DNA of 64,000 nucleotides from an uncultured Gammaproteobacteria bacterium (GCA_964596245.1 CAZQSK010000005.1:42-64041), one strand, 5' to 3'. Shown: positions 3,001 to 52,020, counted from the stretch's first letter. Numbers and translations: made by a program. The notes: generated from the sequence alone by a model not told the origin.

Positions 3001-6000
3001 CGACTGACACAATTGGAATTGTTACCTCATCTACTATTAATACGGTCTTCGGAGAGGGTGGGGTGACGACAACAAATATCGCGGCAACGAACGGTGCGAT
3101 TTTCAATGTTTCCACCACCGTCCTCACCGTCACTGGTCAGCTCGTCTGTTTGGCCAACGGCACGAACTGTCCGGCAGGAACTGGAACGCCGACATTGGCC
3201 CAAGTTACGAACCAAGGCGCTTCAGCGACTAACACGCTTCAACTCTTTGCCGGCTTCCTCTCATCGTCTTCCACGGTGACATCAACCTTCACGGTCCTTG
3301 GAAACACCTCACTCCAGAACGTGACGGGTGCAAATGCGACGTTTACCAATGCGACGACGACGAATCTCTTTAGTTCGGCTGCGAGCTTCACAAACGCAAC
3401 AGCCACGACGCTCGCCGCGTCCTACACATCAACCTCTCAACTCTATGTCGCCGGCCAACTCGTCTGTCTCGCGAACGGTACCAACTGTGTCGCCAACGGT
3501 GGTTCCGGTACCTCTACGAACCATTGGGTCTGGAATGGCACGATCGATTTGTTGCGCATGATGACGAGCACGACTGACCTCGTTCTTGGAAGCCAGGTCA
3601 CGACAACCGGAGCAGCTGCATACTTTGACCTGTCTGGTGGTACCAAGGGCACGTCAACTATCTATCTTGGCCACGGTACAAACACCAACGTGGTGATTGG
3701 TGGTACATCAACCACAAATACGGGATTGAATAGCCTGTTCGTCATGAATGGAAATGATCTGTTCGTGAATGGCAACATCGGCTCAGTCTCATCCGTCTAT
3801 ACGAACGGTGCATTTGTGGCCGGTCCTGGATCTACTCATTATGGAAATGGCTTCATCACCAAGAATGATGCGGGACCTCTCGCGCTTTCGTCCGTCAGCG
3901 GCACGACTCTGAATACCTCGCTTGAAGGAGCGTATAACGCCACGTCACCCCTAACTCTCGAGGCAACGATCCCGGCTTCTGACGACCCGCGCTTTGTCAG
4001 AATCCAGGGCGACTACGCCTACATCGTGAACTCGGGAACGGTTCCGACCCAGCTCCAAATTGTTGATATTTCAAATCCGAGGACGCCTTCAACGACTGCC
4101 CAGCTGTGGTTGCCTGGTTCATCCGAGTGGAATGATATCGATGTGAGCGGCAACTACGTCTATTACACCGACTACGGCGGAGGCAACTTCAACGTGATCG
4201 ATGTCAGCAGCCCTGATAGGCCCTTCATCGTATCGACGAGCACGCTCACCCCTTCGGCGATCGGTGGCGTGCGCGTGAGCGGCAATTACGCGTATCTTAG
4301 CAGCTACTCAGCGGGTGAAATAATGGTGTTAGACATCTCGAATCGAGCAAATCCGGTCCAGATCGCCACCGTCGGTGGAGCGAGCGCGATCTGGCACATG
4401 GATATTCAAGGGGATTATCTCTACTCCATGGTGTGGAGTGGAAGCACGCTCTACGTACACGACATTTCAGATCCGAAGAATCCGCTCTTGCTTTCGTCAA
4501 GAACTCTCTCCGCCACGATTGGATCTTATTCGCGAATCGAAGTTGAGGGGGGCTATGCCTATATTTTCTCATCCAACGGAGACAACCTCGCCATCGTTGA
4601 TGTTCATGATCCGGTGAATCCAAAGGAGATGTACGCAGCCACAGTCGCAGGCGTGACGAGCTTCCGTGACTTCTCGGTAAATGGTCGATATCTCTATGGT
4701 GTTGAAAACGCAAACCCGGCGATTCTCCATGTGATCGACGTTCAAGATAGAAACAATCCGATTCTTGTCCGCTCCTTCCCGGTCGCGGGACACATTTCTG
4801 CATCCGGTATCGATGTGTCAGGACGTCACGCGGTTGTTTTGGACGGGGGCGGCGACCAACTCAGTGTGGTAGAACTCGGCGGCATTGAGGCGACATCGCT
4901 TCTTGCTCACAGTGCAGAGCTTGGACAGCTTAATGTGACCGGACGCGCGTCATTCCAGAACACACTGTCGGTTCTTTCGAGCATCTCTGTCGGGGCGGGC
5001 GGGCTGCAGAGCGTTGGATCTCTTTCTGTGTATGCAAGTAATACCACCTCCACCTTCCTTGGAGCCGTCTCTACGTCGCGACTGATAGTGAATGGTCGAT
5101 CCGTATGTCTCTCGAGTGGGACGAACTGTCCCACGACGGAAACGCTCGCGACCGTGACTGCGCGTGGAGCAACCGCTACTTCAACCGTTCGCTTCTATGG
5201 AGGATTGACGAGCGCTAGTACGACCGTGACTTCAACGTTCACGGTACTTGGAGGAACATCGCTGCAATTCGTGACCGCCACGAACGTCACAACAACGAAC
5301 ATCTCGGCATCTGGAACAGTCTCTTCAACAAGATTCTCAGCGAGCATCGGCACAGTGGCCGCGCCTGCGTTCAGCTTCGCTGGAAGCGGTGACGCAGATA
5401 CCGGCTTTGCACAGACCCTCGGCGCCGGCACGCTCAGCTTCGTGCTCGATGGAGCCGTGGGCTCATACTTCACCTATACAGGCTCTGGTGCAAACGGTCT
5501 GCTACGTGTTGGAGATGGTGCGAGCAATTTGCCGTCATACTCCTTCATGAACGATACCGATACCGGTCTTGCATCGTCCGGTACTAATAAGTTGGCGCTT
5601 ATCGCCGGCGGCGTGAAGACCCTTGAAATTGGTCCCAATGGCGCGACAACGACGAACGTCACCAGCACAAACCTCTTCGTCTCAGGTGTGGTCTCGACCA
5701 CCAGCCTATTCGTGAACGGTTTCCAGGCGTGTCTCTCGAACGGCTCCAACTGTCCCGCCTCCTCCGCATCGCTTCAGACGGCATATGACACAGGCCGCAC
5801 CGTCACTACGACCGCTTCCTCAACTCCGATTCTGGTTCGCGTCCCGATGAATGCCCTTGATGCGGGACTTGGTACCGCTGTCATTGGCACAAGTAGTAAT
5901 AACGGTGTGACGCTTGGTCGTGCCAATATCAACACGGAAACGAGCTTTGTCGCATTTGGAGAGGTGAACAACATTCTTGGCGCTTCAAGTGCGCTCGCAT

Positions 6001-9000
6001 TCTATGACCATACGAATTATGCCTTTGCGATCAAACTATTTGGTCAGGGAGGCATCGCAAATGATCAAGCAACCTTCTCATTGAACGATCTTGATCGTAC
6101 GGGCTCGGCAGATAGTGCAGCCGCCGGCTTTGATAACCAGTCCTCCAACTCATCCACGGCTGTTCTTACGCTTCGTGGGGGATCGAACAGAATGGTTCAG
6201 CATGTAGGCAACGGCTCGCCTGAAGGGAGTATATACGCCGCCCGTGGGAGTATCTTCTTTAATGCGGGAACGGCGGCGACAGGCACCCAGGCCTACCTGA
6301 AGACGAATAGCAATGGGGTGAATGGCTGGATTGGCATTGCCACGACGGACATGACACAGCAGGCCCTCGCACAGGTGACGGCTTTGGGTAGCTCAGCTAC
6401 GGCGACATTGAACCTCTATGGTGGATTTGTGGCGGCGTCATCAACCGTGACGAGCACGTTCACGGTGGTTGGATTAACCACGCTTGGCAATGTGACTGCG
6501 ACGAATGTGACGTCGAGCAACCTCAAACTCGGTGACAAGCTGCGCTTCACAGGCACGGCCATTGATGCGGACAGCATTGATGCGAGCACAGGCAACTTTG
6601 ATGTGAATGCGACTGCGGGTAAGATCAACCTTTCCGCAAGTGATTCGATGACCTTGGATTCTACGGCAAGCACGATTAGCATAAGCGCGAATGGATTGGT
6701 GAGCATCTCATCTAACACAAGCGGCGTCACCCTTAATCCTGCCGACGGCTCCGTCATTACGCTTGGCAGCAGCGCGGACTTCATCAGCTTCGGTGGCCAG
6801 GTAAACTCGAGCATCATCCCATCGTCAGATCTGCTGTTCAGCCTGGGCTCAGCTTCGCTTCGCTGGAACGGCTACTTTGGAAACGTAACCGCGACCAACG
6901 TCACGACGACAAACTTCTTTGCTACGAATGCTTCAACGACAAACCTTATAGCAGGAACCGTGACGACATCCGAACTCATTCTTGAGCAAGCCGATCTTGT
7001 CGAGGTCGGGTCTTTCACTCCTGCAAGTACTACTCAACAAATTGCTTATAGCGGCCGCTATGCATACGTAAGTACTGGCGGAGGATTCATCGAGGTCATC
7101 GATGTTGCTGATCCAACTCGTCCGACTTCTACGACGCGTATTCCTACTACTGCCACCGTCGGTATCACCCGTATCCAAGTGGTTGGGAAATACCTGTACG
7201 TTGGTACTCGTACGCCTGACCAGTTGCGTGTCTACGACATCTCTAAACCGAATGCACCGATCCTCATTCGGGTGCACCCAATCAGCAACGGAACTGGTGA
7301 TGAAGGCCTCGAAATCTCAGGTCGGTATGCTTACGTCCTTGGCATTCAACATTTTAATGTCATCGATATCGGCAATGCCACCAGCCCGCTAGGCTCAGCT
7401 GTCGCCAACTTCGCGACTGGTACGTCGCTGGGCGCGCTTCAGGTCGAAGGTAACTACGCCTATATCGGACATGCCGCAGGCATGACCATTCTTGATATTT
7501 CGAATCCGACCTCACCAAGCACGACTGGCTACTTCCAAGGCGGGTCAATTACCGAACTCGAAATCAACGGACGCTATGCATACTTGGCCGATGGAACCGG
7601 ATCCCTTATCCGTATCGTAGACCTCAAAGATCCGACCCTTCCGACTCAAGTCGGCTCAATCTCTACCGGTTCTGCGCCGAGCAGCCTCCGTCTAGCTGGA
7701 AAATATCTGTATGTAGGTGAAGCAACGGGCATATTCGGCATCCAAGTATTCGATGTCTCAAGCTCGACCAACCCGATCCTCAAAAAAAGCTTTACAACCG
7801 GTAACGTGACGGTGGATCTTGCCGTGAACGGCCGCTACCTCTATACCGCTCAGCAAACTAACGGGTTCCGTGTGATCGATACACAGGGCATAGATTCTCC
7901 ATCAGCAAATATCGGAAGCTTAAATGTAGGCGCCTTGAGCGTGGATATGGATGCAGTGCTAGGTCACTCACTCAATGTTCGTGGAAGCGTGAGCATCGGC
8001 AGCGGCCTACTCTCAAATGGCCCCATCGGTGTCTTCGCTTCAAGCTCTAACCCTGCCGCTTCTTTCGTGAATGCCACCGGCTCAGCCAGCTCATGGGGCG
8101 CCTACGCAAACCGATTGCTCGTAGGCAACAGCCCAAGCGCCACGGGAACCGCCAACTGGAATATGGTGCTTTCCTACACGACAAGCGCTAGTAACGGCGG
8201 CCTGTGTATCGACGATACAAACACGGCAAACACTTGTCCGTCCGCCGCTGGCGGAGCGAGCATCGCGGCCGATGGACCGATCACGGCCGATCGTTTCGAC
8301 TTGGCAGAAATGTATTCCATGTCCGGTGCGGCGGAAGCGGGGGACTTGCTGATGCTTGATTCGGCGGCAAGCTCGACTGTCAAAATCTCGGACGGCACGC
8401 CGTACAACTCACGCGTGATCGGTATCGTTTCCAGCGCTCCGGGTTTCATTCTCGGCTGGAGTGGCGATGTACAGGTTGCGCTCACTGGTCGCGTTCCTGC
8501 CAAGGCCGCGATGACCAATGGCGTGATCCGCGTTGGTGATGCCCTCGTCTCATCAAACATCCCGGGCTACGTCATGAAGGCAACGAAGCCGGGCACCATC
8601 GTCGGTTACGCTCTCGGAGACCTGAATGCAACGGGCACGGTCGAAACATTCGTGTCTGTCGGTTATTGGGCCGGCAATGTTCTGACAACCGATGGCACTG
8701 ACACACGCATCCAAGACAACTTGGTCATCGCTCCGACCTCTACCGCGACCGCTCTGAATCCGTTCGTAGATTCCTATGGCATCACCTTCCGCGGTAGCAG
8801 CTGGGATGCGAGCTCAACCTCGGCCGTAAATCGCGACTTCACCTTGCTTACGGATATCGTCTCTGCGACCACGTCATTCTTGAGCGCGCGCAGCGCCTCG
8901 GGCACGAATCTCTTTACCCTGGACGAAGCCGGTACCTTGCGCCTCACTGGTGACGTGGCGCTCATGGGCCGTATCTATCCGTCGGCGCGCGGCAGCTTCC

Positions 9001-9950
9001 AGGACGACTTCTACATCTATGTCGATGACAGCTCATCGACGAGCCAATACATCTCGACGAATGCTGATGGTTGGCAGGCTCAAACTAGCTACGACTTGGC
9101 TGAACGTTATTACTCAAATACCAAACTCGAAGCCGGTGATCTTGTGATGGCGAGCCGCGAGGGTAGCCTGGGCATTGAAAAGGCGAGTGGCGCGGCAACC
9201 ATTCTCGGCGTTGTCTCAACCAAGCCGGGTTTCTTGCTTGGACGCAATGCCAGCAACACCTATCCGATCGCCCTCGCCGGTCGCGTACCGACCAAGGTCT
9301 CGAACGAAAACGGCGAAATCAAGATCGGTGATCAACTCGGACTCTCCTCGACGCCGGGCGTGGCCGCCAAGGCCGTGGCTCCTGGCCCGACCTTCGGTGT
9401 GGCGCTTGAAGATTATTCCGGCGGAACAGCTGGCACGATCGAAGTCTTCATCAAGTCGGGCGTTATTCTCGGCCCGGCCGCAGAGCCGGTGCTAACGCTC
9501 ACCGCTCCATCAACCAACGAACATGAATATGAACGCAGCGGCTTGGCATTAATCGAAGCGGGCCTGAAGCGCGTACACGTCTCCTACCAAAGCATTGGCG
9601 CCTGGCCGAAGGTGCTCGTCACGCCGCAAGGCGAAGCCGAAGGCGGCTGGTGGACGGAAAACTACAGCGACCTCGGCTTTGACATCATCTTGAAACAGGA
9701 GCAGACGCATGATGTGACCTTCTCATGGGAAGTGAAGCCCGTGTCCGACGGGGACCAAATCTTCCGCTCGGACGGACAATACGGACTCCTAAATCCAACC
9801 ACCGGACAACCCGCGGCAGGGTGGAGCACAGAAGAGGAGCCTGAACCGGAAGCTCCAAGCTCGACCGAGCCGATGGTCGAAACTCCGGAAGCTCCAAGCT
9901 CGACCGAGCCGATCGTAGAGACAGTAACATCAACCAGTACATCGGAATAA
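3..9950 (+). CDS. giant secreted/surface repeat protein (5' end cut by window edge): Thr-rich stalk repeats, two LVIVD-type beta-propeller blocks, duplicated C-terminal module
   Basis: One uninterrupted ORF runs from the window edge to TAA 9948-9950. The translation is Thr/Ser/Gly/Ala-rich with recurring 'LAQVT..GA.AT....GG....S.TVTSTFTVLG.TSLQN' and 'G..VCL..G.NCP' units. LVIVD-like blades ('G.YAY(I/V)...(L/F).(I/V)(V/I)D(I/V)S.P..P') occur at nt ~3980-4890 and ~7010-7890. A 'DLAE.Y...EAGDL(V/L)...G(I/V)VS..PGF.LG...AL.GRVP.K' module occurs twice (~8290-8670 and ~9090-9470). Confidence 0.9.
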   Translation: MATGTNCAATAGAQTLAQVTALGATATTTVSLFGGLVSASTTVTSTFTVLGDTSLQNVVAANATFTSVSTTNVYASGVVSTTQLFVNGRTVCLSTGTNCPAYLLIESDTLATVTGRGASTTLTLGLFGGFVAASSTVTSTFTVLGSTSLQNTTATTLFSPLASFTAATATAFASTFASSSQLYVAGQLVCLANGTNCTASGSGTSTNFWVWNGTIDLLRMMTSTTDLVLGSQVTTTGATAYFDLSGATKGTSTIYFGHGTNTNVVIGGTSTTQTGTLSNFLLDGNDLFVRGNIGSVTSVYTNAAFVAGDGINFLDYNGQTIGVGPTYYQNGLIRQNGTLFIVADADEANAVGGNIYLNAGNGKETLPNAGAIQFTAGTAGFGGAGGGIYILGGQSATTSASNGGEVQVIGGTGDSNGGAGDLILAGGEASSGLAGDVNIRGGVSAVDNRSGSIYLRPGTTDNVSATSASATFVLIESSADHDGAPPSLRFQELTSIGTNYVGFRAATSITGNTIWTLPDTSGVSGSAMILDTSNRLSFQTVCLASGVNCPAGIGTPSLAQVTNIGASATNTLQLFAGFLSSSSTVTSTFTVLGNTSLQNASATTLFSPLASFTAATATTFAAGSASTSQLRVAGQLVCLANGTNCTASGSGTSTNFWVWNGTSDYLRMMTSTTDLVLGAQATTTGATAYFDLAGATRGSSTVFFGFGTSTDVVIGGTSTTEIYLHEFFNLNGSGLFVNQNIGSASSVYSNGAFVAAGQMFSGVETYYGNGFIGRREGALDITTTGISVQPSINILAGPRASGSGGDITLRAGNGNGGSPGGNIYLTPGDSLGQPGHIYITPTSTSNQPELRFVSIGGGQVGLSAPNTAAIAAFVLPSVSGASNTVMATNGSGGLSFISVCLTDGTSCPASASNDTLATVTARGATATSTVRLYGGLTSASTTVTSTLTVLGGTSLQTATATNLYVTGSASTTALTVSYGTTGTPAIRFSGDENTGFVRSATDTIGIVTSSTINTVFGEGGVTTTNIAATNGAIFNVSTTVLTVTGQLVCLANGTNCPAGTGTPTLAQVTNQGASATNTLQLFAGFLSSSSTVTSTFTVLGNTSLQNVTGANATFTNATTTNLFSSAASFTNATATTLAASYTSTSQLYVAGQLVCLANGTNCVANGGSGTSTNHWVWNGTIDLLRMMTSTTDLVLGSQVTTTGAAAYFDLSGGTKGTSTIYLGHGTNTNVVIGGTSTTNTGLNSLFVMNGNDLFVNGNIGSVSSVYTNGAFVAGPGSTHYGNGFITKNDAGPLALSSVSGTTLNTSLEGAYNATSPLTLEATIPASDDPRFVRIQGDYAYIVNSGTVPTQLQIVDISNPRTPSTTAQLWLPGSSEWNDIDVSGNYVYYTDYGGGNFNVIDVSSPDRPFIVSTSTLTPSAIGGVRVSGNYAYLSSYSAGEIMVLDISNRANPVQIATVGGASAIWHMDIQGDYLYSMVWSGSTLYVHDISDPKNPLLLSSRTLSATIGSYSRIEVEGGYAYIFSSNGDNLAIVDVHDPVNPKEMYAATVAGVTSFRDFSVNGRYLYGVENANPAILHVIDVQDRNNPILVRSFPVAGHISASGIDVSGRHAVVLDGGGDQLSVVELGGIEATSLLAHSAELGQLNVTGRASFQNTLSVLSSISVGAGGLQSVGSLSVYASNTTSTFLGAVSTSRLIVNGRSVCLSSGTNCPTTETLATVTARGATATSTVRFYGGLTSASTTVTSTFTVLGGTSLQFVTATNVTTTNISASGTVSSTRFSASIGTVAAPAFSFAGSGDADTGFAQTLGAGTLSFVLDGAVGSYFTYTGSGANGLLRVGDGASNLPSYSFMNDTDTGLASSGTNKLALIAGGVKTLEIGPNGATTTNVTSTNLFVSGVVSTTSLFVNGFQACLSNGSNCPASSASLQTAYDTGRTVTTTASSTPILVRVPMNALDAGLGTAVIGTSSNNGVTLGRANINTETSFVAFGEVNNILGASSALAFYDHTNYAFAIKLFGQGGIANDQATFSLNDLDRTGSADSAAAGFDNQSSNSSTAVLTLRGGSNRMVQHVGNGSPEGSIYAARGSIFFNAGTAATGTQAYLKTNSNGVNGWIGIATTDMTQQALAQVTALGSSATATLNLYGGFVAASSTVTSTFTVVGLTTLGNVTATNVTSSNLKLGDKLRFTGTAIDADSIDASTGNFDVNATAGKINLSASDSMTLDSTASTISISANGLVSISSNTSGVTLNPADGSVITLGSSADFISFGGQVNSSIIPSSDLLFSLGSASLRWNGYFGNVTATNVTTTNFFATNASTTNLIAGTVTTSELILEQADLVEVGSFTPASTTQQIAYSGRYAYVSTGGGFIEVIDVADPTRPTSTTRIPTTATVGITRIQVVGKYLYVGTRTPDQLRVYDISKPNAPILIRVHPISNGTGDEGLEISGRYAYVLGIQHFNVIDIGNATSPLGSAVANFATGTSLGALQVEGNYAYIGHAAGMTILDISNPTSPSTTGYFQGGSITELEINGRYAYLADGTGSLIRIVDLKDPTLPTQVGSISTGSAPSSLRLAGKYLYVGEATGIFGIQVFDVSSSTNPILKKSFTTGNVTVDLAVNGRYLYTAQQTNGFRVIDTQGIDSPSANIGSLNVGALSVDMDAVLGHSLNVRGSVSIGSGLLSNGPIGVFASSSNPAASFVNATGSASSWGAYANRLLVGNSPSATGTANWNMVLSYTTSASNGGLCIDDTNTANTCPSAAGGASIAADGPITADRFDLAEMYSMSGAAEAGDLLMLDSAASSTVKISDGTPYNSRVIGIVSSAPGFILGWSGDVQVALTGRVPAKAAMTNGVIRVGDALVSSNIPGYVMKATKPGTIVGYALGDLNATGTVETFVSVGYWAGNVLTTDGTDTRIQDNLVIAPTSTATALNPFVDSYGITFRGSSWDASSTSAVNRDFTLLTDIVSATTSFLSARSASGTNLFTLDEAGTLRLTGDVALMGRIYPSARGSFQDDFYIYVDDSSSTSQYISTNADGWQAQTSYDLAERYYSNTKLEAGDLVMASREGSLGIEKASGAATILGVVSTKPGFLLGRNASNTYPIALAGRVPTKVSNENGEIKIGDQLGLSSTPGVAAKAVAPGPTFGVALEDYSGGTAGTIEVFIKSGVILGPAAEPVLTLTAPSTNEHEYERSGLALIEAGLKRVHVSYQSIGAWPKVLVTPQGEAEGGWWTENYSDLGFDIILKQEQTHDVTFSWEVKPVSDGDQIFRSDGQYGLLNPTTGQPAAGWSTEEEPEPEAPSSTEPMVETPEAPSSTEPIVETVTSTSTSE
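327..830 (+). repeat. intragenic ~0.5-kb repeat, copy 1 of 3 (within giant gene)
   Basis: Encodes 'TLATVTGRGAS...QLVCLANGTNCTASGSGTSTNFWVWNGTIDLLRMMTSTTDLVLGSQVTTTGATAYFDL...NVVIGGTSTTQTG'. It aligns by eye to copies 2 and 3 at both protein and nucleotide level. Confidence 0.85.
1671..2165 (+). repeat. intragenic ~0.5-kb repeat, copy 2 of 3
   Basis: Encodes 'SLAQVTNIGASATNTLQLFAGFLSSSSTVTSTFTVLGNTSLQN...QLVCLANGTNCTASGSGTSTNFWVWNGTSDYLRMMTSTTDLVLGAQ...DVVIGGTSTTE'. Confidence 0.85.
3192..3725 (+). repeat. intragenic ~0.5-kb repeat, copy 3 of 3
   Basis: Encodes 'TLAQVTNQGASATNTLQLFAGFLSSSSTVTSTFTVLGNTSLQN...QLVCLANGTNCVANGGSGTSTNHWVWNGTIDLLRMMTSTTDLVLGSQ...NVVIGGTSTTNTG'. Confidence 0.85.
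9846..9923 (+). repeat. 2 x 39-nt tandem repeat at the 3' end of the giant gene (PEAPSSTEP(M/I)VET x2)
   Basis: 'ccggaagctccaagctcgaccgagccgat' is repeated exactly with a 39-nt period, starting at 9846 and 9885. Confidence 0.9.
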
Positions 9951-26200: not shown

Positions 26201-27283
26201 ATGGCAAAGAAAAATGCTGACGTTCAGGACGGTCGTCGTGTCGCCGTACAAAGCGCTATCGATCAAATCAAAGAAAAGTTCGGCGAAGGCTCGATCATGA
26301 AGTTGGGCGAGGCCCGCAAGATGCAGGTCGACGCCATTCCGACCGGTTGTTTGTCCCTCGACCTCGCGCTCGGCGTCTTTGGTGTGCCGCGTGGACGTAT
26401 TGTGGAGATCTACGGCCCGGAAGCTTCCGGTAAAACGACATTGGCGCAGCACATTATTGCCGAAGCGCAGAAGGCCGGTGGCATCGCCGCCTTCGTCGAT
26501 GCAGAACATGCACTTGATCCAGACTACGCGCGCAAAATCGGCGTCGATGTCGACAACATGTTGATCTCGCAGCCTGATACGGGTGAACAAGCTCTGGATA
26601 TCGTGGAAACGCTTGTGCGTTCAAATGCGGTGGATGTGATCGTCGTCGACTCCGTGGCCGCGCTTACGCCAAAAGCGGAAATCGAAGGCGAAATGGGCGA
26701 TCAGCACATGGGTTTGCAGGCGCGTTTGATGAGCCAGGCGCTGCGTAAGCTCACCGGCATCGTCTCGCGCTCGCGCACGGTCGTGATTTTCATCAACCAG
26801 ATTCGTTTGAAGATCGGTGTCGTATTCGGCAATCCGGAAACAACCACCGGTGGCACGGCTTTGAAGTTCTACTCATCCCAGCGCATCGAAGTGCGCCGCA
26901 GCGCCCAGATTAAGATGGGGGAGAAGATTATCGGCAACCGTGTAAAGACCAAGATCGTGAAGAACAAGGTGGCAGCTCCGTTCCGCACCTGTGAATTCGA
27001 CATCATGTATAACGAGGGCATTTCTGTACCGGGCGACTTGCTTGATACGGGCACTGAACTCGGTGTTGTGACCAAGTCCGGCAATTCCTACTCCTTTGGC
27101 GCTGAGAAATTAGGCGTCGGTCGTGAGAATGCCAAGCTCGCGCTTAAGGAGCGCCCGGCTCTCATGAAAGAGATCCGTGAAAAGTCTTTGGCGGCCTGGC
27201 AGGAGCGCGAGAATGAGGGCAATACAGCGGCAAAATCAGATGAGGATGCCCCAGAAGATGACGGAACGTCGTCGGAAGCATAG
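26201..27283 (+). CDS. recA: recombinase RecA
   Basis: Walker A '[11 protein letters not shown]'. Canonical RecA sequence throughout, with an acidic C-tail. Confidence 0.97.
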
Positions 27284-30323: not shown

Positions 30324-30348
30324 AAAAATAGACCGCGTATTAGCGGTC
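30322..30348 (-). terminator. rho-independent terminator of the small two-gene unit (minus strand)
   Basis: Hairpin gaccgc-gtatta-gcggtc (30331-30348). On the minus strand it is followed by TATTTTTTT, and the stop codon TAA lies in the loop. Confidence 0.7.
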
Positions 30349-30495
30349 GGAGGGGCGGCGGGTCTTCTTGGAGACCAGTCGCATGAGGGTGCCCGGGTTG
30401 CTGGGCTTGCTGGGCAGATGATCTGCGATCCAGTTGAGCAGTGAGGGGGTCACTGCCAGGCCGAAGAGGGTGAGCAGGATGCCGGTGAGCATCAT
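30340..30495 (-). CDS. small membrane peptide (51 aa), GC-rich ORFan
   Basis: 'MMLTGILLTLFGLAVTPSLLNWIADHLPSKPSNPGTLMRLVSKKTRRPSDR': one TM helix plus a basic tail. Nearly all third positions are G/C. The ATG overlaps the upstream stop (ATGA, 30492-30495). Confidence 0.65.
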   Translation of the reverse strand: MMLTGILLTLFGLAVTPSLLNWIADHLPSKPSNPGTLMRLVSKKTRRPSDR

Positions 30496-30674
30496 GCAGC
30501 ATCCGGGGGCTGGGTGTCGCGGTCCTTCATCGACACGGGTGTCGGGGGCGGCGTGCTCGACAGCCTGCGCAGCAGCTGGAGCTCCTCCTCCGGGATCACC
30601 TGAGTCTTGGTGGTCGCGATCTCGTCGTCCGTAGACAACGAGGGTTTGGAACGTGCGATCTTGCGTTCGGTCAC
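30492..30674 (-). CDS. small hydrophilic protein (60 aa), GC-rich ORFan
   Basis: GTG 30674 is preceded by 'AAGGGAG' with a 5-nt gap. High GC3. Translationally coupled to the downstream peptide gene. Confidence 0.6.
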   Translation of the reverse strand: MTERKIARSKPSLSTDDEIATTKTQVIPEEELQLLRRLSSTPPPTPVSMKDRDTQPPDAA

Positions 30675-30711
30675 TGGTTCTCCCTTGTTCGCCGTCCGAA
30701 GACGGGCTATC

Positions 30712-30740
30712 AACGTACCATAAAGTCGTTATTTTGTCCA
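30712..30740 (-). promoter_or_regulatory. promoter TGGACAAAA-..-TACGTT for the small two-gene unit
   Basis: Minus strand reads TGGACA (30740-30735), a 17-nt spacer, then TACGTT (30717-30712). It sits in an AT-rich patch inside the GC-rich island. Confidence 0.4.
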
Positions 30741-30762
30741 GTTTGCTGGACTTTTTTGGATT

Positions 30763-30818
30763 TGAAGACGCGCCCCGTGCTTTTTCCGAAGAATCTCGGA
30801 TTGGCACGGGGCGCGGTC
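30763..30818 (-). terminator. long GC-rich hairpin immediately after the 30821-31555 gene (no U-run)
   Basis: Arms gacgcgccccgtgc / gcacggggcgcggtc (one bulge) enclose an inner tccga/tcgga stem. It starts 3 nt after the stop codon. Confidence 0.55.
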
Positions 30819-30820
30819 AT

Positions 30821-31555
30821 TCAGGTGTCCGGCCAGTAGCGCTTGGCGAGCGCTTCCAGATCCGGGAGCATGGCCGTCGTGACGTCGAGCAGGTTCGAGA
30901 GGAACCCGTTCGTCAGCCAGATGGCGATGCCGACGCGATTCGGCTTGATGGTGACGAACCCGTCCTTGTCCGGCTTGTGGTCCGGAATGTCGGGCAGGCT
31001 CGCCATCCACAGCTCGATCGAGCCCTTCGCGTTTGTCCGCATCTGATAGTAGCGGGCGCGTCGGGGCGTGGTGTGCGGGGCGATGATGAGGGGGTGTTCC
31101 GGCGACTGCAGAGCCTCGATGAGGCGGCTCCAGCGGAAGTCGAAGCGGTTGACGCGTCTCCCGACGCGTGGGTGACCTTGCGGTCCGAGCGGGATCGGAC
31201 GCATCGCGTACATGGACGGGGAGATCGGCTGATCACCCTCGCCCAGGTACTTGATGATGCTTCCGTCCGTACCCGGCGCGTGGCCACCTTGCAGGTAGCT
31301 CACGTACCGCTCGGCGAGCCCGTCGAGCTTGAGCTCGTACGGATCCTTCACGAGCTCTTCCTCGAAGAGGTCGAGCTCGATGATTGGATCCACCTCGCCC
31401 TCGCTGTTGAGAGCCGGAACGATCCAGACCTGATGCAGCCACATGGCTGCGAGCTCGTCCGTGGACCACGGCATGCGCAGTCGCGGAACCCACATCTGCT
31501 GTGCGAGGGCCCTGATGGCCCGCGCACGAGTCGTCTTCTTCTCGTCGTCGGCCAT
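30821..31555 (-). CDS. hypothetical protein (244 aa), GC-rich ORFan
   Basis: AAGGAGG lies 4 nt upstream of ATG 31555 ('MADDEKKTTRARAIRAL...'). High GC3. No motif recognised. The track ORF extends to 31615. Confidence 0.7.
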   Translation of the reverse strand: MADDEKKTTRARAIRALAQQMWVPRLRMPWSTDELAAMWLHQVWIVPALNSEGEVDPIIELDLFEEELVKDPYELKLDGLAERYVSYLQGGHAPGTDGSIIKYLGEGDQPISPSMYAMRPIPLGPQGHPRVGRRVNRFDFRWSRLIEALQSPEHPLIIAPHTTPRRARYYQMRTNAKGSIELWMASLPDIPDHKPDKDGFVTIKPNRVGIAIWLTNGFLSNLLDVTTAMLPDLEALAKRYWPDT

Positions 31556-31816
31556 ATGGCCTCCTTCTTGTTGATGAACGTTCGGGGACATCCGGACAAA
31601 CCTGGAGGTCAACACTTAACACCAAAAGGTGGTTCGCGTTGGGCGAGAACCGCGTTAGGAGCGTCCAGCAAAAGCCGGAGACTGATCGCGGAGAGGATCG
31701 CCGGTCCTCCAAGTGTGTCGGGATGTCCGACTCGGAATCCAAGTTGCCTTGGGTGCCGAGGAGACACGAGCTCAGACCGAGTAGGTCCGAGCTCAAGAGT
31801 CTGAGTGGGAGGGGGG

Positions 31817-32395
31817 TTAGCCCTCTACGGGTTCGGTCTGGCGAATGGTGATCCATCCGCCGGTAACCGGAATGCGTGTGAAGTCGGTGATCGCGCGTTC
31901 GCTGGTACCCCAGTGAACCGGGATGGTCTGCACGTTGCTGACGCCGCCCGGAAGGATGTCCCAGCCGGAGACGGTCTCGAGAATCTCGACCGTCAGGTTC
32001 CGGCTGTCGCGCGCGACTTCAACGCGCAGGTCCCAGTGCATGCAGATCGACGAGGCGTACGACATGCGTACTTGCTCGTATCCTGCCGCGATGGTTCCTG
32101 CCGATCCGTCCGCGTGAACGCGAGACGAGAGCGTGGGCAGCTGGTGACGACTTCCGAGGAAGCCGCCCCACACGCCCGCCGTCGGGTCGCCGTGTCCGTA
32201 GTTCGGGTCGACCGTGAAGGTGACCCGGAGCGGAAGCACGCCGGTGGCGGCGCGTTCGCGATCGCTCATGTTGATCTCGTCGGCTTCGTGAGCCAGATGA
32301 GTCGCCGCGGCGCCGAAGTCGGCGCTGTAGGCTTGCCACAGGGTCACGAGCAGGAAGACGCTGATCGAGCGGTACAAGATCGTTCGCGGTCGCAT
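31817..32395 (-). CDS. secreted hypothetical protein (192 aa), GC-rich ORFan
   Basis: GGGAG lies 8 nt upstream of ATG 32395. Signal peptide 'MRPRTILYRSISVFLLVTLWQAYSA'. High GC3. Confidence 0.7.
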   Translation of the reverse strand: MRPRTILYRSISVFLLVTLWQAYSADFGAAATHLAHEADEINMSDRERAATGVLPLRVTFTVDPNYGHGDPTAGVWGGFLGSRHQLPTLSSRVHADGSAGTIAAGYEQVRMSYASSICMHWDLRVEVARDSRNLTVEILETVSGWDILPGGVSNVQTIPVHWGTSERAITDFTRIPVTGGWITIRQTEPVEG

Positions 32396-32511
32396 GATGT
32401 TGACTCCCGCCCCGCATCGCTGCGGAGCATGAAATGTACAAACCCGTCTTGGTAGACGGTAGGGAGAGATTCCCGTTCTCGAGCATCAAGGGTTGATGAC
32501 CGGGAACGGGT

Positions 32512-32567
32512 CAGGAACGCGTGACGAATCACGCGCTCCTGCCAGGTTAGTTGTTGTTGGTTGGGGG
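32512..32567 (-). repeat. intergenic module copy (stop - C/A-rich tract - CCUGG - hairpin, read on minus strand)
   Basis: Plus strand shows hairpin 32512-32541 (13-bp stem, 1 mismatch), gCCAGG 32541-32546, then the G/T-rich tract 'ttagttgttgttggttggggg' up to stop 32568. Confidence 0.6.
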
Positions 32568-33002
32568 TTAGGCCGCGGCCGTGTCGACGTCGATCTCGAT
32601 CTCATCGTTTCCGATGAGAACGGCGATCTCGCGATCGGTACGCGGGAGCGGGTTGTGGAGGAGGCTGTACGCCACGGCGGCGTCCAACTCCTCACGCGAC
32701 GGGATCGGCTTGGCCTTGGGGGCCGTGCCGAGGATCGTGTCGTCGAGCAGACGCGTGAACGACTGCTCGAAGGACTGCTCGGCCTCGCGATCGAAGGACT
32801 GGATGTCCCAGATCAGGCCGCAGGCCGCATCGAGCTCGAGGCGGATCTCCTCGAGCTCGCGCTCGGCTTCGGCGATGAGGCCGAGCTTGGCGATCTCGAG
32901 CGCGGTCCGCTTGCGCGGCGTCTCGTCGAACGAGATCGGCAGAGTGCCGCAGCGCGAGCTGATCTCGTCGTATCCCATGGTGGGGAAGAGCGAAAGGTTC
33001 AT
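32568..33002 (-). CDS. acidic hypothetical protein (144 aa), GC-rich ORFan
   Basis: GAGG lies 6 nt upstream of ATG 33002 ('MNLSLFPTMGYDEISS...'). High GC3. The track ORF extends to 33041. Confidence 0.6.
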   Translation of the reverse strand: MNLSLFPTMGYDEISSRCGTLPISFDETPRKRTALEIAKLGLIAEAERELEEIRLELDAACGLIWDIQSFDREAEQSFEQSFTRLLDDTILGTAPKAKPIPSREELDAAVAYSLLHNPLPRTDREIAVLIGNDEIEIDVDTAAA

Positions 33003-33112
33003 GACTGACCTCGTGGTTCGGGGAAGAAACATCCGTATCATCCAGAGCGTTCACGGAAGAAGTACCGTGTCGCCCAAATCGATGATCGAGAGACTCAATC
33101 GGCGATTGGGGC

Positions 33113-33210
33113 GGACGTCGCAGGCAGGTTTGTATCCCGCGCCGCGACGTCCCAGGGGTATGTAGTTGAAGGTTCGGAATGTCCGGGTTGGTTGCCGTTT
33201 GGTGGGAATG
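33113..33210 (-). repeat. intergenic module copy (hairpin - CCAGG - G/T-rich tract on plus strand)
   Basis: Hairpin ggacgtcgc...gcgacgtcc (33113-33152), CCAGG 33152-33156, then 'ggtatgtagttgaaggttcggaatgtccgggttggttgccgtttggtggg'. It shares 'gttgaaggttcgg' with the 34434-34489 copy. Confidence 0.55.
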
Positions 33211-33290
33211 GCGTTCGTGAGCCCCGTTGGGGTCTATCGAACCGCTCATCCGTTGTGGCAACACTGGTCCCTCATCATTCCGTTGCGGAC

Positions 33291-33899
33291 CTACTCGGCC
33301 GCGACCGGCTCCGGCTGCGCCTTGCGGCGCGCGCTCGCCCGCTTCGGCTTCGCCGGCGCGGTGAGCTTGCGCAGCTCCGCCATGAGGCTCTCGAGCTTCT
33401 CCGTGGGGAGGCGCTCGAGGCTCGTCGGCGTGCGCGGGAGCTTGTCCTCGGTGACGCCGCGGTCCTTGAGGACGCGGCGCGTCGAGAGCAGGAGCTCGCG
33501 GTAGGTCTTCACAGCCTCCCGCTGCGCCGCCTGGCGGTCGAGCTTGCTCGCGAGCGCGCTCACCACGGGGGCGAGGCGCTTGCTCTTCTCGGCATCGGCC
33601 TCGAGGGCCGCCTGCGTGTCCGCCGCGGCCTTGGCCTCGGCGTCCGCCTTGTTGGCGTCCTCGCACTCCTGCGCGATGGCCGCGTAGCTCATGCCGAGGA
33701 ACTGGAGCTCCTCGAGGCCGAGCTTGGTGAAGCCTTCGGGGAGCTTCACGCGATCCGCCTCCGCGACGCCGCGGGAGCGCTGCAGCGCGTACGCCCGCCG
33801 CTCCGCCTTGTGGGCGGCCTGGCGCGCGTCGTGCAGGATCTTGTCCTGCTGCTGCTTCGCGGCCTGAGCGACGACGTTGAGGTTGGTGATCGTGAGCAT
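33291..33899 (-). CDS. coiled-coil-like hypothetical protein with basic C-tail (202 aa), GC-rich ORFan
   Basis: AGGAGA lies 5 nt upstream of ATG 33899 ('MLTITNLNVVAQAAKQQQDK...KPKRASARRKAQPEPVAAE'). Ala/Glu/Lys/Arg-rich. The track ORF extends to 34109. Confidence 0.65.
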   Translation of the reverse strand: MLTITNLNVVAQAAKQQQDKILHDARQAAHKAERRAYALQRSRGVAEADRVKLPEGFTKLGLEELQFLGMSYAAIAQECEDANKADAEAKAAADTQAALEADAEKSKRLAPVVSALASKLDRQAAQREAVKTYRELLLSTRRVLKDRGVTEDKLPRTPTSLERLPTEKLESLMAELRKLTAPAKPKRASARRKAQPEPVAAE

Positions 33900-34216
33900 G
33901 GCACTCTCCTGGCTTGTCGTTTCGGTTTCGTTGGTTACGGGAACATCCCCGCAACGCCCATCTCGATGGCCGATCAAAAGTATCGGCGCCCGGGATGGGC
34001 GTGCGTGAGCACGCCCGTGTGAAGGTGCCCCGTCCGATATGATCAGACGGAAGGATGTAGGGACGAGGGAGAATGGCCGGCCGAAGCAAGACATTTCTCC
34101 GAAGGACAATTCAATTGGGATTGGCAGATTGCTCCGCCGTGCCCGACTTCGTTGTCCGCATCATCCGTTCCCATGTTCGGGTTCGGAATGATGTTCGCCC
34201 TCCACATCGCTCCATC

Positions 34217-34367
34217 CAACATTTTGGAGGCGGAAATGGTCCACCTGGCCCGAAGGCCCGCAGATCCGCACCAGCCTTGGTCGAACGATCCCAGTCGAAA
34301 CCGAGTTCGAACGATTCAGGCTGGAGTTGAGACGTATTACTACGGCTCGTCCTCCTCCAAAATGTTG
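34217..34367. ncRNA. candidate structured RNA: 14-bp perfect inverted repeat enclosing nested stems, in a ~590-nt gene-poor spacer
   Basis: CAACATTTTGGAGG 34217-34230 pairs with CCTCCAAAATGTTG 34354-34367. Inner complementary pairs are cagcct/aggctg, tcgaac/gttcga and ggcc-cgaa-ggcc. Strand and function are unknown. Confidence 0.35.
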
Positions 34368-34433
34368 TATGCAGCGAACGGTTGAAAGATCAGCAGCAGA
34401 GTCCGATGGTTGGATCGGCCTCTTGTGCTGATC

Positions 34434-34489
34434 GGCGAGTGAGTTCACTCGCCGCCAGGGTTAGGGTTGAAGGTTCGGGGTGTAGTTGG
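34434..34489 (-). repeat. intergenic module copy (stop - C/A-rich tract - CCUGG - hairpin, read on minus strand)
   Basis: Plus strand shows hairpin ggcgagtg-agtt-cactcgcc (34434-34453), CCAGG 34455-34459, then 'gttagggttgaaggttcggggtgtagttggt' up to stop 34490. Confidence 0.6.
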
Positions 34490-34837
34490 TCAGGAGGCGA
34501 GGGCCTCCGGGGTCTCGTCGATCATCTCGGCGGCGCGCGCGTTGCGTGCGCGGGTGAGGCCCGCGAGCACACGCTTGGTCGCAGCGACGATCGTGGCGTA
34601 GGGGCGCTCCTCGTTGTGCATCGTGCACACGATGAGGATGGCCTCGGCGCGCTCCTTCTCCACGCCGCTGAGGCTCTCCACGGGGCGCTGCATGAGCTCC
34701 TCGCAGTTGAGCGCCGCGATGAGGTCCTCGGCGTTGATCGCCTTGAACTCCATCTCGGTGCACTTGCCCTGGCGGATCGATGCGTGCTCGAGAGCCTTCT
34801 CGAGCGTCTTCGTGAGCAGATCCTTCTTCTTCGACAT
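34490..34837 (-). CDS. hypothetical protein (115 aa), GC-rich ORFan
   Basis: ATG 34837 has GAGG ~10 nt upstream. High GC3. 'MSKKKDLLTKTLEKALEHASIRQGKCTEMEFKAINAEDLIAALNCEELMQ...'. Confidence 0.65.
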   Translation of the reverse strand: MSKKKDLLTKTLEKALEHASIRQGKCTEMEFKAINAEDLIAALNCEELMQRPVESLSGVEKERAEAILIVCTMHNEERPYATIVAATKRVLAGLTRARNARAAEMIDETPEALAS

Positions 34838-34884
34838 TTCTCGGTACCTCGTGCTGTTGGATGTGGATGGTGCGTGATGCAGCG

Positions 34885-35070
34885 CTAGCGCCGCACCTTC
34901 TTCTTCCGGTTCGGGCGGCTGCTGACCGAGCTCGACCCGGTCATCACGTAGCGCGTGGACGGCTGCGCGATCTGACGATCGCGATCCTTCCGCATGCTCA
35001 GGGCCCGCTCCACGTCCTCGTCGGACGTGCAGTACGTACCACCGACCGTGATCAGGTTCTTCTGACTCAT
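34885..35070 (-). CDS. small basic-tailed protein (61 aa), ORFan
   Basis: ATG 35070 follows 'GGGGTGAAGAG'. 'MSQKNLITVGGTYCTSDEDVERALSMRKDRDRQIAQ...RPNRKKKVRR'. The track ORF start (35175) is the TTG of the promoter -35 hexamer. Confidence 0.5.
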   Translation of the reverse strand: MSQKNLITVGGTYCTSDEDVERALSMRKDRDRQIAQPSTRYVMTGSSSVSSRPNRKKKVRR

Positions 35071-35146
35071 CTCTTCACCCCGAAAGGTGCTGGATCCCGG
35101 ATTCCGCTCAGAACCACCTGAGACGGTTTCCAGAATCGAACGGGCT

Positions 35147-35175
35147 AGGATAACATAAAAAGAGGGTTTTGTCAA
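35147..35175 (-). promoter_or_regulatory. promoter TTGACAAAACCC-..-TATCCT driving the first genes of the eight-gene island
   Basis: Minus strand reads TTGACA (35175-35170), a 17-nt spacer, then TATCCT (35152-35147). The first 12 nt are identical to the promoter at 43672. Confidence 0.5.
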
Positions 35176-35382
35176 GGGTTGCAGGACAGCGTTATCTAGA
35201 TTAAATGCGCTACAATTAGCGACAAATATAGATCATTGTTAAAATTGTCTAAAATTAGCCAACAGCAAATTGGCTTAGTTGAGCTATCAATGGGGATAAG
35301 AAGATTCAAGATTGGGTTCAAAAATAGCGGTTTTGGCTCAGATCAGCGTTTTTTGACAAAAGTGCCTCAGATTCGCATTCCC

Positions 35383-43135: not shown

Positions 43136-43146
43136 TGGCTAAACAA

Positions 43147-43171
43147 AAAGCTCCCTTCGGGGAGCTTTTTT
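43147..43171 (+). terminator. rho-independent terminator of rpoBC
   Basis: gctccc-ttcg-gggagc (43150-43165) followed by tttttt. Confidence 0.85.
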
Positions 43172-43172
43172 G

Positions 43173-43212
43173 GTATGAAAAAAGAGCCAGTTGGCTCTTG
43201 TGAGGGTGCCTC
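43173..43212 (-). terminator. repeat copy 1: 3'-UTR + rho-independent terminator shared by the twin cassettes
   Basis: 'gtatgaaaaaagagccagttggctcttgtgag' (32 nt) is identical to 43681-43712. The minus strand reads aagagcca-ac-tggctcttttttcatac directly after the stop of 43212-43622. Confidence 0.8.
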
Positions 43213-43622
43213 TACATGCTCAGAGGGATATCGACGAGACCGACGATGAAGTAAACAAGATTGTACTTCCGTTCGTTGAGTGGCCTCGTTCGTGGTCCGT
43301 AGACCGCCAGTACGGAGTAGCCGTCTTTCTCGAGCCGCTCCTTGAGCGCGAGCGCACGCCCGACGAGAATGGGGAGTTTGGGCCAATTTATCCCCTCGAT
43401 CATCCTTATCGGCTCGACCAAGCGCTTGTTGCTCGATCGTATGGTGCCGATCACATAGAAGAAGGATGTCCCATCCCTCATCTGTTTTCTCGCTTTGCGG
43501 TACCAGTACTCGACCCAGGTCGCATCGTCACCGGACCTATGTTGCCAGGGGTTTAGTTTCGTATCTGCTGCGATCTGATCTAGCACGCGACAGAATGTTT
43601 CGTGGGCCTGGTGCTTGCGCAT
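43212..43622 (-). CDS. hypothetical protein (136 aa), ORFan cassette A
   Basis: 'GAGGAGGTGAGG' lies immediately upstream of ATG 43622 (the track start, GTG 43628, lies inside the SD). 'MRKHQAHETFCRVLDQIAADTKLNPWQ...'. No motif recognised. Confidence 0.65.
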   Translation of the reverse strand: MRKHQAHETFCRVLDQIAADTKLNPWQHRSGDDATWVEYWYRKARKQMRDGTSFFYVIGTIRSSNKRLVEPIRMIEGINWPKLPILVGRALALKERLEKDGYSVLAVYGPRTRPLNERKYNLVYFIVGLVDIPLSM

Positions 43623-43641
43623 CCTCACCTCCTCGCGCCCC

Positions 43642-43672
43642 TACTTAGCGCATGAAACATGGGTTTTGTCAA
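43642..43672 (-). promoter_or_regulatory. promoter TTGACAAAACCC..GCTAAGTA (cassette A)
   Basis: Minus strand reads TTGACA (43672-43667), a 19-nt spacer, then TAAGTA (43647-43642). 26 of 31 nt are identical to the cassette B promoter. Confidence 0.5.
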
Positions 43673-43680
43673 TCCCTCGA

Positions 43681-43720
43681 GTATGAAAAAAGAGCCAGTT
43701 GGCTCTTGTGAGAACGCCTC
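43681..43720 (-). terminator. repeat copy 2: 3'-UTR + rho-independent terminator shared by the twin cassettes
   Basis: Same 32-mer as 43173-43204. It follows the stop of 43719-44180 on the minus strand. Confidence 0.8.
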
Positions 43721-44180
43721 ACCAGGAGGCAATGATCTCCACCCACTCCTTGGGCTCACCATCCGGTGATCCCCAGAGCGGGGATTGGAGGTTCGGATGA
43801 ACCACCGGCGCCTCATCCCGGAACATGCACTTGTTTGGGTCCGGAGCGAAGCGGCGGAACTGCTTCACCCCAAAACCGTTGATGACGAGGATGGGGGCAA
43901 GCATGAAAGCTTCGCCGCACAAGCTGTAGAACGCTGGGATGCCTTCGACTTCGACTGTGGTTTCGCACAGTGTGCGGTCGCGGCAGTCGATGCGGACGAA
44001 CGAGGCGGCCCTCTGGTTGAGTTCAGCCGCAAGTCTAAAGCGCGGCTTCTGCTCATCGAGGAAGGTTTGTGCCGCATGAAGGGCGCTGAGTGAAGGCCTC
44101 CTCTCGACCCTTCGCTCATTTCTGCGAGCTACCCGCTCGCTGATCTCCATCAGCTCCCAAATGAACTGCTTGTCTATCAT
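43719..44180 (-). CDS. hypothetical protein (153 aa), ORFan cassette B
   Basis: 'GGGGAGGAAGCG' lies upstream of ATG 44180 ('MIDKQFIWELMEISERVARRNE...'). The ATG at 44198 sits about where transcription should start. No motif recognised. Confidence 0.65.
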   Translation of the reverse strand: MIDKQFIWELMEISERVARRNERRVERRPSLSALHAAQTFLDEQKPRFRLAAELNQRAASFVRIDCRDRTLCETTVEVEGIPAFYSLCGEAFMLAPILVINGFGVKQFRRFAPDPNKCMFRDEAPVVHPNLQSPLWGSPDGEPKEWVEIIASW

Positions 44181-44201
44181 CGCTTCCTCCCCTTGCATCG
44201 T

Positions 44202-44232
44202 TACTTAGCCCAGAAAACAGGGATTTTGTCAA
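44202..44232 (-). promoter_or_regulatory. promoter TTGACAAAATCC..GCTAAGTA (cassette B)
   Basis: Minus strand reads TTGACA (44232-44227), a 19-nt spacer, then TAAGTA (44207-44202). Confidence 0.5.
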
Positions 44233-44253
44233 CCCTTATGCTACGCTTTGGTC

Positions 44254-49633: not shown

Positions 49634-49662
49634 ACATAAGCGGAAAAATGGCGCTTTGTCAA
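49634..49662 (-). promoter_or_regulatory. promoter TTGACA-17-TTATGT for the HExxH/methyltransferase operon
   Basis: Minus strand reads TTGACA (49662-49657), a 17-nt spacer, then TTATGT (49639-49634). Confidence 0.5.
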
Positions 49663-51991: not shown

Positions 51992-52020
51992 ATTGGATCG
52001 GTTTTCGCGGTTTTTGTCAA
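51992..52020 (-). promoter_or_regulatory. promoter TTGACAAAAA-..-TCCAAT for pyrF (weak -10)
   Basis: Minus strand reads TTGACA (52020-52015), a 17-nt spacer, then TCCAAT (51997-51992). Confidence 0.35.

Follow-up and report, generated by a model that had tools for sequence, protein, structure and literature searches.

Unrelated antisense genes in duplicated promoter and terminator flanks at a putative gene-turnover hotspot between rpoC and ruvC of an Uhrbacteria-like bacterium

Introduction

Integron cassettes form arrays of unrelated open reading frames (ORFs), each with a similar short palindrome at its 3' end, and single cassettes are gained or lost. Phage morons are autonomous promoter-gene-terminator units inserted between prophage genes. 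Neisseria has minimal mobile elements (MMEs; Saunders and Snyder 2002, in the summary given by PMC3898611), in which different strains or species carry different whole-gene cassettes between two conserved core genes. Here we analyse a locus that resembles each of these in part: two unrelated genes, designated A and B, that are set in near-identical promoter and terminator flanks (shells) between rpoC and ruvC. The locus lies in a 64,000-nt stretch of contig CAZQSK010000005.1 (assembly GCA_964596245.1), called the window below, which is assigned by its RuvC homologues to a Candidatus Uhrbacteria-like member of the Patescibacteria, or Candidate Phyla Radiation (CPR).

CPR genomes are small and rich in ORFans, and little is known about the routes by which genes enter and leave them. 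The rpoC-ruvC interval provides a concrete, alignable case: an apparent hotspot beside essential genes, where six or more unrelated cargos occur within the genus, strains differ by gain or loss of a single gene, and short duplicated regulatory flanks would mark the recombination joints. The locus reveals no new recombination machine. For a group in which genetic work is just becoming possible, it is also a source of candidate native promoter and terminator parts.

Results

Genes A and B both lie on the minus strand, antisense to rpoC and ruvC and between them (Table 1). Read in the direction of transcription, the interval consists of promoter box P_B, a Shine-Dalgarno sequence (SD) and gene B, terminator T_B, an 8-nt linker, promoter box P_A, an SD and gene A, and terminator T_A. 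T_A meets the rpoC terminator convergently and directly adjoins it. At the other end ruvC, which is divergent from P_B, starts at 44254, 21 nt past the box. The terminators are the solid part of the evidence for a shared shell. A 32-mer, GTATGAAAAAAGAGCCAGTTGGCTCTTGTGAG, occurs exactly twice in the window, at 43173-43204 and 43681-43712 (0 expected from 100 shuffles), and the similarity reaches 37 of 40 nt (93%), stopping at both stop codons. On the minus strand the repeat forms a 7-bp stem with a 4-nt loop followed by U6, as in an intrinsic (Rho-independent) terminator. Both copies were called by a terminator scan, and the hairpins in 61-nt terminator segments folded at -15 and -19.9 kcal/mol. 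The promoter boxes are identical at 26 of 31 positions (0 by chance), with similarity reaching 45 nt at 76% identity. On one side, homology between the two cassettes breaks off precisely at the stop codons; on the other, it breaks off some 20 nt short of the start codons, immediately before the SD. This anatomy agrees with the original prediction, whose coordinates were right: it had described two unrelated genes of 136 and 153 aa with strong SDs, the exact 32-mer pair with similarity to about 40 nt, and the 31-nt promoters, all of which lie on the minus strand.

P_A and P_B have a perfect -35 element, TTGACA, and are predicted to be promoters. A sigma-70 scan that looked for a -10 element 16-18 nt away returned 0 sites, since neither box has an acceptable canonical -10 at that distance; the non-canonical region GCTAAGTA is kept in both, and related boxes in relatives read TGCTAAGAA, TGCTAAGGA and TGCTAAGAT. 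Imperfect inverted repeats surround a T run in both spacers and differ between them (CCCATG-TTT-CATGCG in P_A, 43650-43663; CCCTG-TTTT-CTGGG in P_B, 44210-44223); they could act as a shared operator for co-regulation. The motif TTGACAAA is present in 7 copies in the window against 2.0 expected, a number reached in 0 of 100 shuffles, and every copy has an ORF shortly downstream. In several of them a T-rich spacer comes next, then TGn and a TAAGNN-like -10. The motif is a candidate lineage-specific strong-promoter consensus for Uhrbacteria, and the first 8-9 nt of the promoter box appear to be this organism's generic -35 motif. Unrelated promoters in the window match P_A and P_B at 15-19 of 31 positions, so that only about 7-10 of the 26 shared positions inform on common descent. 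Because TTGACAAA recurs and unrelated promoters share this much, the recurrence of the first 12 promoter nt at 35164-35175(-), noted earlier as lying in front of an eight-gene island, is mostly a generic extended -35.

Table 1. Features of the rpoC-ruvC interval and copies of the promoter motif, in window coordinates.
Feature	Coordinates	Strand	Remarks
rpoC intrinsic terminator (AGCTCCC-TTCG-GGGAGCT + T6)	43145..43171	+	Orthologous hairpin 3' of rpoC in all relatives
T_A, 3' untranslated region (UTR) of gene A: hairpin 43182-43199, U6, GTATG of rpoC-side flank	43173..43212	-	
Gene A, 136 aa, ORFan	43212..43622	-	SD GGAGGTGAGG-ATG, optimal spacing
P_A, promoter-like box TTGACAAAACCCATGTTTCATGCGCTAAGTA; -35 TTGACA, non-canonical -10 region GCTAAGTA	43642..43672	-	
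Linker between P_A and T_B, 8 nt, TCCCTCGA on plus strand	43673..43680	.	
T_B, copy of T_A (32/32, 37/40), GTATG included	43681..43720	-	
Gene B, 153 aa, small fast-evolving family	43719..44180	-	SD GGGGAGGAAGCG-ATG (GGGGAGG)
P_B, promoter-like box TTGACAAAATCCCTGTTTTCTGGGCTAAGTA	44202..44232	-	
Conserved ruvC-proximal flank CCCTTATGCTACGCTTTGGTC; -10-like TATGCT at 44237-44242, back to back with P_B	44233..44253	+	
560-nt segment absent from L001: one repeat period (cassette B + one promoter copy)	43664..44223	.	
Copies of TTGACAAA	11818-11825(-), 35168-35175(-), 35353-35360(+), 43665-43672(-), 44225-44232(-), 49655-49662(-), 52013-52020(-)		

The content of the interval varies between strains. 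One Logan contig, L002 (sample SRR8893623), is 100% identical to the window over 2627 nt and has B next to ruvC. In another, L001 (sample SRR22388024), gene A is present and P_A is joined straight to the ruvC flank. L001 differs from the window by an exact 560-nt gap and by 8 single-nucleotide polymorphisms (SNPs) and one indel in 1374 nt; the only SNP within gene A is synonymous. The gap ends within the 9-nt TTTTGTCAA common to P_A and P_B. Logan contigs are built from 31-mers and cannot be joined through a 9-nt repeat, so the presence/absence polymorphism of a single cassette, anticipated with the modular units, is real. The window itself comes from a contig assembled from a metagenome, the 32-nt repeat is where both Logan contigs break off, and an A-only allele exists (L001); A-only and B-only strain alleles might then have been chained in tandem by the assembler through their shared repeats. 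We regard such an artefact as highly improbable in view of the identity of L002 to the window and of the tandem antisense units that are also found in L039, L119-122, L115 and L048. Moreover, the unique bases TCCCTCGA at the P_A-T_B junction are flanked by only 9 nt of shared promoter-side sequence, and a k-mer graph could therefore not have invented it.

The array can be read as two whole versions of the interval placed head to tail, because T_B carries GTATG from the rpoC side and P_A carries TCCCT from the ruvC side. GTATG is the rpoC-side flank at T_A, where the flank of relatives reads tATATG, ttATG or aAATG. TCCCT in the linker resembles the ruvC-side flank (CCCTT in the window at P_B, TCCTT in L033, TCCGT in L115 and L119) and is probably derived from it. 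The ruvC-proximal flank CCCTTATGCTACGCTTTGGTC is kept in L025, L033, L115 and L119, independent of the cargo. The twin shells are best read as a local duplication, not as copies of a dispersed element. With somewhat better than even confidence, we favour a local, MME-like hotspot in which two interval alleles became joined head to tail and cassettes are now lost through the duplicated shell.

The products of A and B share no detectable homology of the kind expected for tandem paralogues: BLASTP gave E=30 and hhalign a probability of 0.35%, and neither blastn nor tblastx (DNA, six-frame) found anything. G+C at the three codon positions of gene A is 0.55/0.39/0.69, and the third-position value (GC3) of 0.69 for A and 0.73 for B compares with 0.70-0.74 in rpoB, rpoC and gyrA; both are probably real, compositionally native genes. 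Protein A matched only itself among 5.8 billion proteins in a word-index search, and among PDB sequences it had only a weak match, to the methyltransferase 3l8d_A (E=0.0035). Neither protein has a family in Pfam, PHROGs, PADLOC or NCBIfam, or relatives in phage or plasmid libraries. AlphaFold2 single-sequence models of A and B (predicted local distance difference test, pLDDT, 46 and 44) were too poor for fold searches. The idea that A or B is a degenerate GNAT acetyltransferase was dropped: the best hhalign alignments to the profile of the locus GNATs fell in motif A with scores no better than those of shuffled sequences, and there was no Pfam GNAT match. For protein B, an exhaustive HMMER search of 1.84 billion representatives returned the protein itself and one homologue, P0123 (B'; 46% identity, E=6e-28), and the family has a conserved block, VRIDCRDRTLC. 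In L111/L112, where RpoC is 87% identical, the gene for B' converges on rpoC and diverges from yebC. Its promoter, TTGACAAAATATTCTGTTTCTGGCCCAAATA, matches P_B at 22 of 31 positions, and its terminator, GAGAGCCTCACGGCTCTCTTTTCATAT, is related to those of the window. B appears to be an old resident of the locus and A an orphan. B evolves several times faster than core proteins, as do the GNATs of the locus (L033 vs L034, 45%). The two products would be cytoplasmic, fast-evolving, strain-variable accessory proteins.

Such fast evolution, with B and B' at 46% while RpoC is at 87%, lends some support to a plain tandem duplication of one ancestral cassette, after which the coding sequences (CDSs) diverged past recognition while selection or gene conversion preserved the shells, which would make A and B remote paralogues. 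The exact limits of the cassette homology, at the stop codons on one side and immediately before the SD on the other, also fit, and the A and B models share the element order H-H-E-E-H, although at pLDDT 44-46 they are uninformative. We consider this explanation unlikely. Terminators identical at 32 of 32 positions imply a recent copy, yet the CDSs have nothing in common by any of the comparisons above. An orthologue at genus distance still matches B at 46% identity, and a recent paralogue should therefore be recognisable too. Nor do relatives carry a single ancestral gene pair that has diverged in the ordinary way.

The contents of the interval change from relative to relative. There is no gene between rpoC and ruvC in L026, L028/29, L031/32, L113 and L116 (RuvC 82-86%, RpoC 86-90% identical); the gene order in these cassette-free relatives is rpoB-rpoC-ruvC-MBL-gyrA, and the empty spacer measures 57 nt in both L026 and L028, and 5 nt in L031. 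In more distant relatives yebC stands in the spacer, on the plus strand, and the window holds neither yebC nor yebC remnants, so that A and B are lineage-specific occupants. Other relatives carry other genes at the same spot. L033 and L034 (RuvC 79% and 76%) have one antisense GNAT acetyltransferase (Pfam E ~1e-15), and L039 (RuvC 77%) has a GNAT followed by a second antisense unit, E. The arrangement is rpoC-[C, 102 aa]-yebC-[D, 164 aa]-ruvC in L115 (RuvC 84%) and rpoC-[F, 326 aa]-[C, 105 aa]-ruvC in L119-122 (RuvC 80%), and in the closest relative, L025 (RuvC 90%, MBL 94%), cargo C adjoins ruvC. The interval states are thus empty, A, B, A+B, GNAT, C(+yebC)+D and F+C. All-against-all BLASTP showed no pairwise similarity among families A, B, C, D and GNAT (F and E were outside that comparison). 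D had been tried as a diverged B orthologue, being alike in N-terminal ELxEM..ER.RNE and a C-terminal W-stop, and was rejected at an hhalign z of 0.99 against shuffles. Cargo F has no Pfam or PADLOC family, C and D are also without family matches, and the cargos have no match in defence-system, phage or plasmid libraries. These comparisons point to the rpoC-ruvC spacer as a hotspot of gene turnover in this lineage, holding from none to several small genes. All cargos found point against rpoC and ruvC, and every unit inspected in close relatives comes with a promoter-like box, an SD and an intrinsic terminator of its own.

Several of these cargos share a type of terminator, which agrees with the original prediction. 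Terminator-related sequence lies 3' of rpoC also in L111 (B'), L033 (GNAT) and L115 (C). The type GAGCC-loop-GGCTC-T run-CATA stands behind A, B, B', C and D, with a variant form behind the GNAT, and across 597 kb of related DNA nearly all occurrences of the GAGCC-loop-GGCTC-T-run type are at hotspot cassettes carrying A, B, C or D. Cargos C and F have their own different promoters or terminators. Behind C (L115 370-420) the stem is as in L111 (GAGAGCC/GGCTCTC), and a 26-nt insertion replaces the 4-nt loop. B (43719-43724), B' (L111 902-907), D and C (L115 1495-1500 and 425-430) all end in Trp-TGA (TGGTGA) a few bases before the hairpin, in proteins without significant similarity; the related part of the terminator flank may take in the final codon as well. 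A conserved terminator-promoter linker common to the window and L039 was considered and dropped, as the shared GGATTGACA and CATA are generic or flank features. In the distant relative L048 (RuvC 61%), three or four antisense units occupy the rpoC-yebC spacer (740-3200, minus strand). Two unrelated proteins there, one Cys-rich (121 aa) and one Exo_endo_phos (289 aa), both have near-identical 40-nt terminators, cccccgcgcgattc(t/a)ccatcgcccggggg(c/t)gtttctt, one of which is the rpoC-proximal one. The pattern is that of the window in another sequence.

Related flanks across cargo types could also mean that a resident antisense promoter and terminator keep the interval transcribed, and that DNA landing or arising inside it becomes an ORFan in place. 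The missing homologue of A, the lack of family matches for C, D and F, and the host-like composition of A and B are all compatible with this. We nevertheless find it hardly probable. B, C and the GNAT are conserved from genome to genome, clearly as established genes; ORFans abound in CPR genomes in any case; and the orphan status of A comes from a word-index, not an exhaustive, search. A 136-codon ORF with strong GC3 periodicity is unexpected from new sequence, and the cassette-free L026 and L028 have no antisense promoter or terminator in the spacer.

The original prediction saw in the twin shells the signature of a modular cassette system. The self-contained units, the shared shell and the unrelated cargo hold; a genome-wide or dedicated system does not. 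In such a system a recombinase would insert or excise cassettes at the hairpin, the promoter box or both, in integron-like fashion, and the shell would mark a mobile pool. Different cargo in the same shell, the clean presence or absence of a single cassette, related terminators behind four or five cargo types at the locus and the recurrence of the terminator-copy pattern in L048 all speak for it. We still judge it improbable. No further shell sequences were found in the window. A search for the shell in public collections, which were without the source genome, gave only 20 scattered single matches to the terminator 21-mer core in 596 Gb of representative genomes, in unrelated bacteria and as generic terminators, 0 matches to a shell 26-mer in the JGI metagenome collection, and 0 matches to promoter and terminator in IMG/VR viral contigs; Rfam gave only sub-threshold matches. 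The linked recombinase to be looked for under the original prediction did not turn up either: Pfam scans covered the genes beside the cassettes, the ORFs of the island and 10 mid-size window ORFs, and none matched a tyrosine or serine recombinase. The 18-nt hairpin is a terminator that lacks attC features, every cassette comes with a promoter of its own, and C and F differ in promoters or terminators. Integration had been proposed to act at the hairpin; the L001 junction lies instead in the -35 box of the promoter repeat, and the anatomy fits a local head-to-tail joining of alleles.

Other features were also seen. In L116, a relative without cassettes, a 618-aa Cas12f/TnpB-like protein (PADLOC Cas12f, E=1e-43) and a 93-aa ORF lie between ruvC and the MBL-fold gene (6970-8826, minus strand); this appears to be a mobile or guide-RNA nuclease element in the rpoC-ruvC neighbourhood. 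In the window, about 7 antisense ORFans lie directly upstream of rpoB (30340-35175, minus strand), with G+C 0.60-0.73 and GC3 0.80-0.94 vs about 0.70 in core genes. This island starts at the promoter TTGACAAAACCCTCTTTTTATGTTATCCT (-35, 17 nt, extended -10), its ORFs have no Pfam or PHROG match, and it looks horizontally acquired. Together with the A and B cassettes, it places antisense accessory genes on both sides of rpoBC. A giant ORF of at least 3315 aa (3-9950, plus strand) enters from the left window edge.

Discussion

In the explanation that we favour, an A allele (like L001) and a B allele (like L111/L112, with B' abutting rpoC) would have coexisted in the population and been joined by unequal or illegitimate recombination. 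The product would read rpoC flank-T-A-P-ruvC flank, then rpoC flank-T-B-P-ruvC flank, with 3-4 filler bases between. After DNA uptake, for instance, ruvC could have served as the anchor for homology-facilitated illegitimate recombination (de Vries and Wackernagel 2002, listed in PMC8116780). Under this mechanism, foreign DNA would be added beside a one-sided homologous anchor and joined on the opposite side with short or no homology, which fits a head-to-tail junction; it is a process, not an element, and is proposed here for this locus. The route is plausible because natural competence has been demonstrated in one CPR phylum, the Saccharibacteria (PMC10187176), and RecA is encoded in the window (26201-27283). 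Alternatively, a tandem duplication of the interval could have come first, with the other allele later replacing one of the two copies. In either case the twin shells would provide direct repeats through which RecA-dependent or slippage deletion could drop one cassette cleanly, and L001 would be either such a deletion or a surviving parental allele. Each unit would be transcribed alone from its TTGACA-type promoter and ended by its hairpin, a stop that may also shield rpoC and ruvC from antisense read-through.

Several points weigh against this explanation. The P_A-T_B junction (43673-43680) is present in the window contig alone, and an exact RpoC look-up for an independent contig across it has none on record. 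Neither a simple microhomology join at TATG nor homology-facilitated illegitimate recombination, as outlined, explains the 3-4 nt (CGA/CGAG) at this junction. Promoter similarity across cargo types in different genomes is about 20/31 against a generic background of 15-20/31, and only the A-B, B-B' and GNAT-GNAT pairs exceed that background. The expression of the A and B units is a prediction from sequence, and further shell copies may exist in the rest of the source genome, the search having covered the window and public collections. Finally, whole-allele exchange alone does not account for the related flanks of the A, B and GNAT units, in which the differences are confined between the -10 or UTR and the stop codon. 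Differences limited in this way could come from short shells acting as homology arms, from very fast CDS divergence with kept flanks, or from a coding origin in place. A bolder proposal, conceivable but doubtful, is that the shell serves as portable homology arms with which competent Uhrbacteria swap, stack and drop fast-evolving ORFans by RecA alone, in function a recombinase-free analogue of the integron. The terminator type behind A, B, C and D and the copied terminators of L048 would be footprints of such exchange.

Compared with the known systems, the locus fails every defining feature of an integron. No IntI tyrosine recombinase turned up in the Pfam scans of cassette neighbours, island ORFs and mid-size window ORFs. 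An attC site is an imperfect palindrome of 57-141 nt with RYYYAAC...GTTRRRY, whereas the repeat here has a perfect 7-bp stem, a 4-nt loop and U6, and inspection of the 18-nt terminator palindrome showed no GTTRRRY or RYYYAAC core sites and no R''/L''/L'/R' boxes. Integron cassettes are mostly promoterless and served by a common Pc; here each unit has its own TTGACA box, a predicted promoter, and SD. The deletion has its junction within the promoter repeat and away from the hairpin.

The self-contained promoter, single gene and terminator between two unrelated genes recall phage morons. This, however, is a core chromosomal interval with no prophage context, and the searches described above found no phage or plasmid relatives.

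The closest likeness is to the MMEs, as they are described in PMC3898611. Here too, the whole-gene cassettes found between two conserved core genes differ by strain or species. There are no mobility genes, and exchange would presumably proceed by homologous recombination, in a group in which Saccharibacteria have shown competence; for rpoC-ruvC, exchange by recombination in the flanks is what we infer. No mobility gene lies in or beside the cassettes; RecA and RuvC are present, and relatives have a FemAB-like gene next to RuvA. The locus differs from the Neisseria elements in its host, a CPR bacterium, and in its place, the rpoC-ruvC spacer. All cassettes found here are antisense single-gene transcription units, two of them have a duplicated promoter and terminator shell, and related terminators stand behind unrelated cargos. 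By the descriptive definition of MMEs, the locus therefore appears to be an MME-like hotspot in the CPR, built of antisense self-contained units, with a duplicated shell that would mark the recombination joints.

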